A DNA stretch of 63,447 nucleotides, filler included, from Anaerolineae bacterium (GCA_041082215.1; 10 parts of 10 records of this genome joined end to end with filler, not necessarily neighbours in it); one strand, 5' to 3'. Positions 53,712 through 57,030 are shown, counted from the whole stretch's first letter. The notes: generated from the letters alone by a model not told the origin. Numbers and translations are program-made.

Positions 53712-53811
53712 NNNNNNNNNNNNNNNNNNNNNNNNNNNNNNNNNNNNNNNNNNNNTTAATTAATTAANNNNNNNNNNNNNNNNNNNNNNNNNNNNNNNNN
53801 NNNNNNNNNNN
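53712..53811. other. Artificial contig linker
   Basis: N44-TTAATTAATTAA-N44. Confidence 0.98.
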
Positions 53812-53860: not shown

Positions 53861-54070
53861 TCACCGCGTCAACGTCAGTTTGAACTCGTCCCCCACCGCC
53901 TCTACCTGCACCTTCAGGCCGGCCCGTTCAGCCGCCCGGCGCACGTTCTCGCGGGAGGTGACGGTATCCACCAGGACCTCAATGGGAAACTGCCCCTCCC
54001 CCATCGCCTGCCGGGTGAGGATGACCGGCTGGGGGCAGGATAGGCCCCGCGCATCCACAACTTTGGCCAT
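53861..54070 (-). CDS. TusA/SirA/YedF-family sulfur(selenium)-carrier protein
   Basis: VDARGLSCPQPV motif, 69 aa; RBS GGAGGT; directly downstream of the YedE gene. Confidence 0.93.
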   Translation of the reverse strand: MAKVVDARGLSCPQPVILTRQAMGEGQFPIEVLVDTVTSRENVRRAAERAGLKVQVEAVGDEFKLTLTR

Positions 54071-54112
54071 CTTTACACCTCCGATAGTGCGCTTGGTAAA
54101 ACCCAGCACGAT

Positions 54113-54139
54113 GTAGCGCAAGATTGAATCTTGCGCTAC
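54113..54139. repeat. Perfect GTAG-type palindrome overlapping the YedE stop codon
   Basis: GTAGCGCAAGATT-g-AATCTTGCGCTAC (13-bp arms). Confidence 0.85.
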
Positions 54140-55251
54140 GACCGCTCGCGCATGGTGAAGCCCAGCACGATGCAGAAGACCAGTCCAATAATGACGGCGG
54201 CCTGTCCGTAGGGACCGGGTCCGCCCACTGTGAGCACGCCCTCGGCCAGTTTGTCGGGGACGCCAGCCAGGGCCCAGTTGTGGGCAAAGCCCGCGCCGAA
54301 GATCATCCCCAGGACGAAGAGGCCGGCGTCGCCGTCCCCCTCACCGGAGAGGAAGAGCTGACGGCCCGGGCAGCCGCCCGCCAGGAGGAAGGCCAGCCCG
54401 GCCAGCGCCATCCCCAGGAAGTTCCAGATGTGGCTGGAATGGGCGACCGGCTGGGCGACGAAGCCCGGATTGAACTGCCCCAGGACCAGATTGGTGATCA
54501 GGGCGACCACGAAGAGCGCGCCGACACCGGTGATGAGGTGAGTATCCCCCATCAGAATGACGTCCCGCCAGGCGCCCATCGTGCAGAAGCGGGTGCGCTG
54601 GGCCAGAAAGCCGATGAGCAGCCCCACACCCAGGGAGATGAGGACAGGGGCATGCTTGGAACCGGGGCCCTCTACGCTGAAGAAGATGGGGCCTTCGGGC
54701 GCGAACTGGGGGCGGAAGAGGAGGAGGAGCAGGAGGCCCAGCATGATGGCGGGCATGATCCAGCCAACGGGGGCCGGTGCCGGGCGGCTGCGGCCCAGGG
54801 AGTAGCCCCGCTTCAGGAAGAAGACGCCCAGGGCAATGCCGGCGACCAGCCCGGCGGTGCCCACCAGGCCGTTCAGGTCACCGCCCGCCAGCCGCAGGAG
54901 CGCCCGCCACGGGCAGCCCAGAAAGACCAGGGCGCCGATCATGGCGAACATCCCCAGCAGGAAGCGGACGATGGGGGCGGAACCGGCGCGGGGCTTGAAC
55001 TCCCGGAAGAGGAGGGCGGCGATGGTGGAGCCGAGGACGAAGGCGATGATCTCCGGGCGGATGTACTGGACGAGGGCTGCCCGATGCAGCCCCAGCGCCC
55101 CGGCGATGTCCCGCTCGAAGCAGGCCACGCAGATGCCCATATTGGTGGGGTTGCCGGCTTTCTGCAGAAGCGGGGCCAGCAGGCCGATGACTGCCCCGGC
55201 CAGGAGGATACCCCAGCGCGAGGCAAAGAAACGGGTGAGACGCTCAGACAT
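54136..55251 (-). CDS. yedE: YedE-family putative selenium transporter (YeeE/YedE superfamily)
   Basis: GNP.NMGICVACF.RDIAGALGLH, QYIRPEI, LVFLGCP.R, AQRTRFC, GGCPGRQL; multiple TMs; RBS AAGGAGG. Confidence 0.9.
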   Translation of the reverse strand: MSERLTRFFASRWGILLAGAVIGLLAPLLQKAGNPTNMGICVACFERDIAGALGLHRAALVQYIRPEIIAFVLGSTIAALLFREFKPRAGSAPIVRFLLGMFAMIGALVFLGCPWRALLRLAGGDLNGLVGTAGLVAGIALGVFFLKRGYSLGRSRPAPAPVGWIMPAIMLGLLLLLLFRPQFAPEGPIFFSVEGPGSKHAPVLISLGVGLLIGFLAQRTRFCTMGAWRDVILMGDTHLITGVGALFVVALITNLVLGQFNPGFVAQPVAHSSHIWNFLGMALAGLAFLLAGGCPGRQLFLSGEGDGDAGLFVLGMIFGAGFAHNWALAGVPDKLAEGVLTVGGPGPYGQAAVIIGLVFCIVLGFTMRERS

Positions 55252-55320
55252 CGTTACGTACCTCCTTATCGTTGGATTTTCCACGCGCCGGGCCGATGCC
55301 CGGACACGGCGTGGGCAACG

Positions 55321-55351
55321 AAAAACCGCCGCCAGCACACGCCGACGGCGG
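55321..55351 (-). terminator. Intrinsic terminator (attenuator 3:4 helix) in the yedE leader
   Basis: Minus strand CCGCCGTCGGC-gtgt-GCTGGCGGCGG-TTTTT, 11 bp with 2 G-U pairs, about 70 nt upstream of the yedE start. Confidence 0.85.
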
Positions 55352-55377
55352 ATGGGAGGTACATGCCCCGCTTCGCT

Positions 55378-55485
55378 TCAGGGCGCGGCCTCACCGCCGC
55401 CCCCCGACGTGTGCCAGACGACCCACGGGCACCGCCCGGTGCCCCAGGCCCCACCTCAGGTGCGGCGGTGGCGCAACCCGAACAT
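55378..55485 (-). CDS. Putative selenocysteine-containing leader peptide (MFGLRHRRT-U-GGAWGTGRCPWVVWHTSGGGGEAAP)
   Basis: RBS AAGGAG 55498-55493, ATG 55485, in-frame TGA at codon 10 (55458-55456), frame stays open to TGA 55380-55378. Confidence 0.65.
55420..55450 (-). promoter_or_regulatory. Bacterial SECIS-like hairpin
   Basis: GGGCACC-GGGC-GGTGCCC (55444-55427) starts exactly 11 nt 3' of the UGA; G-initiated 4-nt apical loop; weaker lower stem ggcct/gggtc. Confidence 0.65.
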
Positions 55486-55542
55486 CGGTCTACTCCTTGC
55501 CTTCGCGGTAATTCGCTCGCTGCAGGTGTGCAACTGATGCTA

Positions 55543-55571
55543 ATTATACTCTAATCTGCATCATTTGACCA
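55543..55571 (-). promoter_or_regulatory. Sigma70 promoter of the leader-yedE-tusA transcript
   Basis: TGGTCA-N17-TATAAT on the minus strand. Confidence 0.65.
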
Positions 55572-55588: not shown

Positions 55589-55781
55589 GGGCGTATTTCA
55601 ATTTCGGGGCGAGTGGTCCTCCCGCCCGCCGGTGGATCGCAAATCCCACGAATGGCCCGAATACAGCGAATTAGGAGGGATACCTGCTCCATTCGCGGTA
55701 TTCGTTTCTATTCGCGCCATTCGTGTTTCCCCAGGTCTGGCCCGGGCCAGAGACATCTCGCCCCCAAACCGAAATACACCT
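55589..55781. mobile_element. MITE copy 2 (inverted relative to copy 1)
   Basis: GGGCGTATTTCA ... GAAATACACCT; flanked by direct repeat AGTTCGCAG (55580-55588 and 55783-55791). Confidence 0.88.
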
Positions 55782-55854: not shown

Positions 55855-56973
55855 TTATTCGCCACCCTTCGGCGTTACCCCTGTTTTGAGGCCGCTGCCG
55901 GTGAGGATCACCACGACCGTTCCACCCAGCTCTCCCTCGGCCCGCAGTCGGGTCAGCGCGGCCACCGCCAGGGCGGAGGTCGGCTCGACGTAGAAGCCCC
56001 GATAGGCCAGCCGGCGCTGTGCGGGCAGAATGTCCACCTCTGGCACCGCCAGGAGCCGACCCCCGCTCCTCCGCACCGCCTCCAGCACCGCCCGGCCCCG
56101 CACAGGTGCGGCGATCCGCACCCCCTCGGCTATCGTCTCCCCCTCCTCGATAGATGCCGGCTCTTCTTTCCCTTTCTCCCAGGCGGTCGCCAGCGGCGCG
56201 CACGGTGCCGCCTGCACGCCGAAGAGACGGGGCAGGTGGGCGATGCACCCTGCTGCCATCAACTCCGCCCATCCCCGCGCCAGCCCCAGAAGCAGGGAGC
56301 CGTGCCCCACCGGCAGGACGATGGCGTCCGGCACGTGGGGAGGAGGGAGCTGCTCGTAAAGCTCGAAGGCCACCGTCTTCATCCCGTGGTGGATCAGGGG
56401 GTGGTAGACATGGCTGGCATACGCCGCCCCACGATACGCTGCCTCCAGTACCGCCCGCGCTGCCTCGGTCCGCGGCCCGGGCACGGGGACCACCTGCGCT
56501 CCGTATGCCGCGATCTGAGCCTGCTTGGCCGGTGAGGCGTGGGCAGGGACGTAGACCGTAGCACGGATGCCCGCCCGGGCGGCATAAGCGGCCAGGCTCG
56601 ACCCCGCGTTGCCCGACGAGTCCTCCACCACCTCCTCCACGCCCGCTGCCGCCAGCGCCGTCATCAATACCGCTGTGCCCCGGTCCTTGAACGAACCGGT
56701 GGGATTGAGGAACTCGCACTTGAAGAGGACCGGCAGCCCCTCCCACTCCGCCGCCACCAGGGGGGTCATCCCCTCCCCCAGCGTGACCGGCGTCGCTCCT
56801 TCTGGCAGCGGGAAGGCGTGTCGGTACCGCCACAGCGTCAGATCGGCCCCTTCTACCCGAGCCGGATCGTAGACGGGCGGCTCTTCGATCTCCAGAACCC
56901 CGCCACAGTCGCACCGGAACCGGATGGGGTCAGGCGGATAGGCCCTTGAACAGCTCGAACAGCTCAGGCGCAC
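55855..56973 (-). CDS. thrC: Threonine synthase-like PLP enzyme
   Basis: N-terminal CxxC..CxC, TLGEGMTPL, NPTGSFKDRG, DSSGNAG, PVGHG, VEPTSA, LTGSGLK. Confidence 0.85.
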   Translation of the reverse strand: MRLSCSSCSRAYPPDPIRFRCDCGGVLEIEEPPVYDPARVEGADLTLWRYRHAFPLPEGATPVTLGEGMTPLVAAEWEGLPVLFKCEFLNPTGSFKDRGTAVLMTALAAAGVEEVVEDSSGNAGSSLAAYAARAGIRATVYVPAHASPAKQAQIAAYGAQVVPVPGPRTEAARAVLEAAYRGAAYASHVYHPLIHHGMKTVAFELYEQLPPPHVPDAIVLPVGHGSLLLGLARGWAELMAAGCIAHLPRLFGVQAAPCAPLATAWEKGKEEPASIEEGETIAEGVRIAAPVRGRAVLEAVRRSGGRLLAVPEVDILPAQRRLAYRGFYVEPTSALAVAALTRLRAEGELGGTVVVILTGSGLKTGVTPKGGE

Positions 56974-57001
56974 TTTCCCTCTCCCCCCGATGATAGGGGA
57001 G

Positions 57002-57030
57002 ATAATACCATCGAACAGGAGAGCAGGCAA
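57002..57030 (-). promoter_or_regulatory. Sigma70 promoter for thrC
   Basis: TTGCCT-N17-TATTAT with extended TGn (minus strand). Confidence 0.6.

Follow-up and report, generated by a model that had tools for sequence, protein, structure and literature searches.

Attenuators of amino acid operons (trp, his, leu, thr, pheA, and ilv) combine a short leader reading frame containing regulatory codons with mutually exclusive RNA helices (1:2, 2:3, and 3:4) that end in an intrinsic terminator. In these systems the regulatory codons are placed such that a waiting ribosome covers segment 1, and the controlled genes supply the amino acid that is sensed. In the tryptophanase operon, the ribosome stalls in tnaC through the nascent peptide and free tryptophan, which block RF2, and termination is Rho-dependent. 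Thanbichler and Bock reportedly described in 2002 a selenocysteine insertion sequence (SECIS)-like element in the Escherichia coli selAB leader that is undecoded and acts on translation via SelB. According to excerpts of PMC3892789, selenium controls transcription of fdhF(Sec) in Treponema primitia by translational coupling; the UGA lies within the regulated selenoprotein gene, and transcription drops at low selenium through polarity. We describe here a leader element preceding yedE in a 63,447-nucleotide (nt) stretch of DNA from an Anaerolineae bacterium (GCA_041082215.1), the whole of which is called the window. The leader, yedE, and yedF are all on the minus strand, and positions are window coordinates. 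With moderate confidence, we take the element to be a ribosome-mediated transcription attenuator that senses a selenocysteine (Sec) UGA codon and is ON when Sec-tRNA is scarce.

Alternative helices of the leader

The decisive evidence is comparative: in aligned sequences, the same predicted architecture recurs with compensatory changes in 54 distinct homologous leaders. Species-representative genomes were scanned, giving 288 yedE relatives, and the best 80 of these 288 loci were used. Most of the 80 are Chloroflexota metagenome-assembled genomes named Anaerolineae or Thermoflexales. A covariance model (R1) was trained on the window and 37 loci. Among the window and the 80 loci, all 38 training sequences scored 86–146 bits and were each located directly 5' of yedE, and weaker matches of 27–38 bits occurred upstream of yedE in L055, L056, L045, L012, L050, and L070. 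From the same class, 151 genomes were evenly sampled, and R1 identified 24 leader copies in 22 of them. Rfam has no family for the leader at E-values up to 10, giving only spurious microRNA-type matches. A metagenome scan with the pattern CACCGCCGNACCTGA gave, among the matches listed, almost all chance hits, and one weak model match in the 80 loci taken from it.

Helices were counted on MAFFT alignments not fitted to any structure, one of 39 sequences (A1) and one of 54 (A4). Alignment A3, made with the covariance model, puts terminator-loop bases in insert columns, and the antiterminator was counted on A4 instead. The long inserts of L056 led to its exclusion from A2, A4, and the model. L222, L225, and L226 were excluded from A4 as identical to L021, L016, and L014, and L224 and L229 were excluded from A3 and A4 as the same genome places as L017 and L027. 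L239 (33.6 bits) is in neither A3 nor A4.

The initial annotation had proposed three classical helices, and all of its pairings are present in the window at the coordinates given. The core of segment 1, CACCGCCGC (55462..55470, codons 6–8 of the leader frame), forms nine of nine Watson-Crick pairs with GCGGCGGTG (55400–55392), as verified by script. The proposed extension of CCUGA (55460–55456) with UCGGG (55407–55403) forms five of five pairs, one of them G-U, so that the hairpin 3' of the UGA lies within helix 1:2, as had been claimed. On the segment 1 side, the extended helix spans 55475–55456. Segment 2 consists of 2a (55404..55416), the antiterminator strand, whose partner is the top and loop of the terminator, and 2b (55392..55403), a G-run plus GCGGCGGUG. 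Segment 2a (55416–55404) forms 13 of 13 pairs with 55345–55333, four of which are G-U, and GGCGG (55401–55397) forms five of five pairs with CCGCC (55351–55347) and covaries as part of helix 2:3. Segments 3 and 4 form the intrinsic terminator (55321..55351), again as annotated, with an 11-base pair (bp) stem, a loop of four (GUGU), and U5; the stem-loop occupies 55351–55326 and the T5 tract 55325–55321. A further antiterminator pairing that had been put forward, of GAGG (55392–55389) with CCUC (55359–55356), is complementary at four of four positions in the window but is not conserved (55.8% of cells paired in the 39 sequences of A1, with three of four pairs changed on both sides), and it was dropped from the antiterminator.

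Helices 2:3 and 3:4 covary strongly, whereas 1:2 is conserved with weaker covariation; mutually exclusive helices have to this extent been kept in evolution. In A4, 87.1% of cells are paired in 2a:3, the helix with the best covariation in the leader, and 10 of its 12 pairs have changed on both sides. For the whole antiterminator (2a:3 and 2b:3) the corresponding values are 88.5% and 13 of 18, with 90 double-change cells as compared to 29.2 ± 6.0 upon shuffling (0 of 500 shuffles reach this number) and 8–15 in slid controls. The competing set of post-UGA hairpin, hairpin P2, and terminator is 86.1% paired in A4, with 27 of 34 pairs changed on both sides and 136 double-change cells (54.4 shuffled). 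Helix 1:2, extended to 19 pairs, is 73.6% paired in A4, with 12 pairs changed on both sides and 55 double-change cells (33.0 ± 6.5 shuffled; 0 of 500 reach). Owing to GCC triplet periodicity, 1:2 slid by ±3 columns is still 66–71% paired, which makes the support for this helix less firm.

When all column pairs were scanned without bias, 2a:3 ranked first, the terminator second, and the apical stem of the post-UGA hairpin third. Terminator-loop bases covary with 2a (for example, AU in 35 sequences and CG in 10 at one pair, and CG in 26, UA in 14, and UG in 14 at another), which a plain terminator does not need. By eye, L238 keeps the 2a:3 pairing with a wholly different sequence, GCUCGUGUG with CACAUGAGC. 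The terminator, located ahead of the structural gene, is 92–95% paired with compensatory changes, and its U-rich tail is conserved in the alignments. For 1:2, 36 of 38 leaders had RNAduplex energies below those of composition shuffles (at most 10 of 200 shuffles equally low), and for 2:3, 35 of 38 did. The RNAalifold consensus of the 54 sequences consists of the post-UGA hairpin and the antiterminator even with segment 4 included, and on the alignment cut ahead of segment 3, 1:2b is selected.

The three-helix scheme stands as an architecture but is incomplete, as it lacked two conserved hairpins. P2 (2b:2c; 55378..55407, –24.5 kcal/mol), the 3' arm of which finishes on the leader stop codon, is 88% paired, with six of seven core pairs changed on both sides; its internal mismatch becomes U-A or A-U in other lineages. 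P5 (55281..55314), between the terminator and the yedE ribosome-binding site, is 76–78% paired with 11 of 13 pairs changed on both sides, in a region where the alignment is poorer. Segment 2b is thus a hub with three partners, these being segment 1, 2c, and the foot of the terminator 5' arm (segment 3). The G-run at the start of 2b (~55405–55401) is also complementary to a conserved linker, CCUCC (~55360–55356), with 83% of cells paired and 10 covarying cells (A1 columns 137–141 with 198–202). This linker could be a fourth partner of 2b or an anti-Shine-Dalgarno sequence.

In the window sequence taken singly, support from folding is modest. The minimum free energy (MFE) has a z-score of –1.8, with 8 of 200 shuffles folding equally well, and the 1:2 (–32.2 kcal/mol) and 2:3 (–33.3 kcal/mol) duplexes are matched in energy by 6 and 3 of 200 shuffles, respectively. 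The terminator is the sole terminator-like site in 1.2 kb (0.8 ± 1.1 expected). Upstream, a σ70-like promoter (TGGTCA-17 nt-TATAAT; 55543..55571, minus strand) matches the consensus at 10 of 12 positions, one such site being found as compared to 0.2 ± 0.5 in shuffles. The regions 5' of the leader, on the promoter side, differ between loci; conservation, which continues to yedE, starts with the leader-frame ribosome-binding site.

Leader reading frame and SECIS-like hairpin

The leader reading frame (55378..55485, minus strand) has 35 codons and a stop, and encodes MFGLRHRRT-U-GGAWGTGRCPWVVWHTSGGGGEAAP, with TGA translated as U. It begins with ATG (55485–55483), preceded by a Shine-Dalgarno-like AAGGAG (55493..55498), has an in-frame UGA taken as Sec at codon 10 (55456..55458), and stops at codon 36 (55380–55378). 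A translatable frame with a ribosome-binding site is general among the relatives. A Shine-Dalgarno-like motif lies 4–16 nt 5' of the start codon in 37 of the 39 aligned leaders, and the start is ATG in 24, GTG in 14, and TTG in one. The UGA follows nine codons in 30 copies, eight in four, seven in four, and six in one.

The frame appears, from these alignments, to be translated through the UGA, because the second stop, which varies in identity, is kept in frame and because the first is always UGA. All 39 leaders have a stop codon at the aligned second site (TGA in 30, TAG in 6, and TAA in 3), and in 37 it is in frame with the UGA and preceded by no earlier in-frame stop. The distance from UGA to stop differs from 78 nt in nine copies, in seven of these by multiples of three; in the other two, L017 and L013, an in-frame stop occurs earlier. 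Of the 54 distinct leaders, 53 have TGA as the first stop, the exception being L234, which has TCA in the same frame. This UGA sits 4 nt past the segment 1 core, so that a waiting ribosome covers segment 1 but neither 2a nor 2b.

In L234 (1501–1658, minus strand), which precedes a gene resembling the selenocysteine lyase SclA, the Sec codon is thus replaced in frame by one for Ser, and the stem of the post-UGA hairpin has a mismatch. Helices 1:2 and 2a:3 and the terminator are intact in this copy, and SelB is present in the genome.

The hairpin after the UGA (55420..55450) is SECIS-like and predicted from its form and placement to direct Sec insertion. In the window, a lower stem and a 7-bp apical stem (55444–55438 with 55433–55427) come after an 11-nt spacer, and the apical loop (GGGC, 55437–55434) begins 18 nt past the UGA. 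The position of the hairpin relative to the UGA is conserved and agrees with that of bacterial SECIS elements. The seven apical pairs are 93–100% paired with compensatory changes, the variants including GGGCGCC/GGCGCCC, GGGCACC/GGUGCCC, GAUCGCC/GGCGAUC, and GAGCGCU/GGCGCUC. Bacterial SECIS elements, as defined in the bSECISearch work, have a G in the first positions of the apical loop. The leader loops have such a G, being 3–6 nt long and starting with G or AG (GGUU, GGGC, AGUU, GGCC, GUUC, GGAC, and similar).

We also used a family-independent detector for a Shine-Dalgarno motif, a start codon, 3–20 codons, TGA, and a G+C-rich hairpin with a loop G at 13–26 nt. It fired in 46 of 81 yedE upstream regions, as compared to 4 of 81 reverse complements and 13 of 239 random windows of the loci.

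The machinery for decoding Sec accompanies the leader. SelB scored above its curated cut-off in all 10 leader-bearing genomes tested, and in the class sample it occurs in 130 of the 151 genomes, including all 22 that bear the leader. In five of five relatives, SelD has one in-frame TGA, and these organisms therefore decode Sec. The selD genes of the relatives have, by eye, a G+C-rich stretch at a similar place after the UGA. No tRNA gene occurs within the window.

Genes downstream of the leader

The leader is linked to selenium genes. In the window it precedes yedE (54136..55251, minus strand), which encodes a putative selenium transporter (TIGR04112, 487 bits; cut-off, 200), and a short YedF/TusA-like gene (53861..54073, minus strand) that scores below the cut-off of TIGR03527 (49 bits against 110) and matches only its N-terminal domain. 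The genomes of five relatives have one model match each, ahead of yedE. In four of these five, selD lies 3' of yedE-yedF on the same contig and strand, with its in-frame TGA in the motif CAG-U-AGK (e.g., L096), and the leader may also control the selenoprotein SelD in relatives.

No selD occurs within the window. Nine pairs of 44-N runs are found there, with 12 bases between the runs of each pair. One pair (53712–53755 and 53768–53811) directly follows yedF, and the other eight lie between 18924 and 62403. At the corresponding place after yedF, the relatives have a repeat-rich spacer and then selD.

In the class sample, 15 of the 24 copies precede yedE. Single copies precede a selD with Sec (L220; TIGR00476, 340 bits), a YedF fragment (L221), a putative selenate ABC binding protein (L238; TIGR04553, 358 bits), an HdrD/TfrB-like iron-sulfur protein (L236), and a double-cubane reductase (L241; NF040772, 462 bits). 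Three precede cysteine desulfurases of TIGR01977 that are close to SclA (L234, 438 bits; L228; and L223). The L228 gene sits behind a yedE remnant and the L223 gene is truncated, both having been named from the translated N-terminal sequence. P5-like hairpins also occur after the leaders preceding the HdrD-like and double-cubane genes.

The remaining copy (L240, identical to L017:1–213) is duplicated and adjoins inserted mobile genes. L017 has two diverged leader copies (1–213 and 2755–2944), 2.7 kb apart. Between them lie what we take, from our own reading of the translations, to be a nucleotidyltransferase/HEPN pair, chorismate mutase, DAHP synthase, and a transposase-like gene on the opposite strand. 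The arrangement looks like an insertion that duplicated the leader.

More distant leaders were recognized by eye. Diverged Sec-codon leader frames with a hairpin occur 5' of yedE in L055, L045, L012, L032, L035, and L047, and likewise in L063 (Dehalococcoidia), L067, L069, L080, and L076 (Chloroflexia), and L060 and L070 (Fibrobacterota). By a strict terminator rule, only 2 of these 13 leaders have a terminator, which suggests that those without an obvious one may be translational or Rho-dependent versions of the same idea. Farther downstream, L067, L069, and L080 have a stretch complementary to the ribosome-binding site and start codon of the leader itself.

On the other side of the leader promoter, just 5' of it, the window has a gene for a threonine-synthase-like pyridoxal phosphate enzyme with a Cys-rich N-terminus (55855–57030, minus strand; all NCBIfam matches below cut-off). 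A hairpin at 55732–55776, the source of a spurious microRNA match, may be the terminator of this gene.

At odds we would put slightly above even, the element marks a Chloroflexota selenium-starvation regulon, comprising yedE/yedF, selD, an SclA-like lyase, and a putative selenate ABC transporter, and would be a cis-acting sensor of charged Sec-tRNA through a race between SelB and RF2 at one UGA.

Response to selenium and relation to known systems

From these parts we infer a mechanism that depends on Sec insertion, on a dwell at the UGA, and on timing. A leader of ~215 nt would be transcribed from the promoter, and a ribosome would begin the 35-codon frame and arrive at the UGA with the SECIS-like hairpin ahead of it. 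With Sec-tRNA(Sec)/SelB scarce, the ribosome would dwell or end at the UGA and never get to segment 2. Segment 2a would then pair with the nascent loop and top of the terminator, and 2b with its foot, letting polymerase continue into yedE-yedF and, in relatives, also into selD. With selenium ample, Sec would be inserted, and the ribosome would melt the SECIS-like hairpin and pass 2a, 2b, and P2 to codon 36, leaving segment 3 free and allowing the terminator to form. Without translation, 1:2 would tie up segment 2, and the terminator would again form. As speculation, P2 may pause polymerase or slow the ribosome over 2a.

The leader is probably ON at low selenium, a direction favored by the controlled genes and by ensemble folding. 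The controlled genes serve uptake, activation, and salvage, for which induction by starvation is the usual logic. The portion of PMC11097638 containing Table 1 reports that yedE mRNA of Methanococcus maripaludis rises 5.28 log2-fold upon selenium starvation. As to folding, we computed from the ensemble how probable it is that segment 2 holds segment 3 at the point at which segment 4 is about to emerge. The mean is 0.61 for a ribosome at the UGA, 0.44 for no ribosome, 0.31 for one at codon 36, and 0.01 for one on 2a. This probability is higher with the ribosome at the UGA than with none in 18 of 39 leaders and lower in 6, and moving the ribosome from the UGA to codon 36 lowers it in 28 of 39. 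Constrained MFE with ribosome masks, a check that the initial annotation had suggested, does not discriminate among the masks.

Several points weigh against this direction or against the mechanism as a whole. By constrained MFE, the terminator state is favored by ~15 kcal/mol under every ribosome mask; being always the thermodynamic minimum, it obliges the model to rest on kinetics. The initial annotation had the ribosome running over segment 2 to codon 36; a ribosome parked there would cover only the 3' part of this segment and leave 2a free. In 9 of the 39 leaders, the antiterminator is more probable with the ribosome at codon 36 than at the UGA. Release by RF2 at the UGA may free segment 1, and the classical scheme gives the conserved P2 no role. 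Under this logic, the L234 copy, in which Ser replaces Sec and the attenuator is otherwise intact, would be constitutively off. An RNA library (X9) contains a 170-nt contig identical to the window (55237–55406, depth ~2) that bridges the terminator; such data are contigs only and silent on transcript ends, strand, level, and regulation. X9 has a second contig within yedE, and contigs of X12 and X13 cover yedE and yedF of a relative at 90–95% likeness. Last, the evidence for SelB and tRNA-Sec comes from the genomes of relatives only and not from the window's own.

Some of these points would be accounted for if the same parts worked with inverted logic, which we judge unlikely but keep as a serious rival. 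At low selenium the leader would be OFF, through RF2 release, 1:2 or P2, and the terminator. At high selenium the ribosome at codon 36 would melt P2 and block 1:2, and 2a with the 5' half of 2b would capture segment 3, turning the leader ON. The site of the stop codon fits this scheme, since a ribosome there covers 2c and only the 3' part of 2b, whereas the site of the UGA fits the trp-type design, since segment 1 would be masked by a ribosome held up there. In L041 and L044, the P2 loop tolerates insertions of 15 nt, which shift the stop away from 2b, as inverted logic would permit, and the L234 copy would simply be constitutive. Ensemble folding divides between the two, the nine leaders just mentioned agreeing with inverted logic and the 28 with lower antiterminator probability at codon 36 disagreeing. 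The genes themselves (yedE, selD, and those for the SclA-like and putative selenate-binding proteins) are of a kind usually induced by starvation, and the response of M. maripaludis yedE likewise argues against inversion.

Two further explanations give the reading frame a different part. In the first, which we consider quite improbable, the hairpin is a SelB-binding operator rather than an insertion signal; SelB occupancy would shift the fold or block translation, and the frame would matter little. The apical stem-loop is indeed the most invariant part of the leader, and the element reported for the E. coli selAB leader would be a precedent, but the conserved frame to the second stop, the start codon, the Shine-Dalgarno motif, and the exclusive UGA at codon 10 indicate translation, and 2a and 2b lie within the reading frame. 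In the second, which is very improbable indeed, the conserved frame with its UGA and SECIS-like hairpin would encode a functional small selenopeptide (e.g., a selenium carrier) followed by its own terminator with partial read-through, but the residues after Sec are poorly conserved while compensatory changes maintain the RNA pairings, the peptide has no match in NCBIfam, and the terminator loop covaries with 2a.

Our preferred reading therefore remains that of an attenuator sensing a Sec codon. Excerpts of PMC5322559 propose YedE/YedF and a LysR regulator, with YedE as a transporter, and describe the regulatory network as not understood; these excerpts contain no mention of "UTR" or "attenuat". 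Excerpts of a 2026 review of the prokaryotic selenoproteome (PMC13188914) contain no "leader", "uORF", or "attenuat". A full-text search, with most subscription journals outside its reach, found no Sec-codon leader or attenuator. As far as this search reaches, the element is undescribed and is a new variant on the attenuation principle. Bacterial selenium sensing is largely open, and a Sec-codon attenuator, if true, would supply a direct mechanism and extend textbook attenuation to a recoded stop codon. It would also allow selenium-regulated genes, candidate transporters among them, to be recognized in genomes, and would offer a selenium-responsive genetic switch.

The closest known systems are the attenuators of amino acid operons, with which the leader shares the features given at the outset. 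Unlike these, the leader has a single UGA that would need SelB, a SECIS, and Sec-tRNA, with recoding in competition with RF2 and no run of hungry codons. It also has the SECIS-like hairpin inside 1:2 and the additional hairpin P2 ending on the leader stop, and its genes serve transport and activation of an element rather than amino acid biosynthesis. As in tnaC, whether transcription continues would depend on a ribosome halted at a leader-frame UGA, but through an intrinsic terminator with an RNA antiterminator. As in the selAB leader, a SECIS-type hairpin would regulate genes of selenium metabolism; here, unlike in selAB, the hairpin lies 3' of an in-frame UGA, the frame is conserved, and a terminator and antiterminator are attached. 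As with T. primitia fdhF(Sec), passage of the ribosome over a Sec UGA would set the extent of transcription, although here this would occur in a dedicated leader with alternative helices, ahead of other genes, and likely with the opposite response to selenium.

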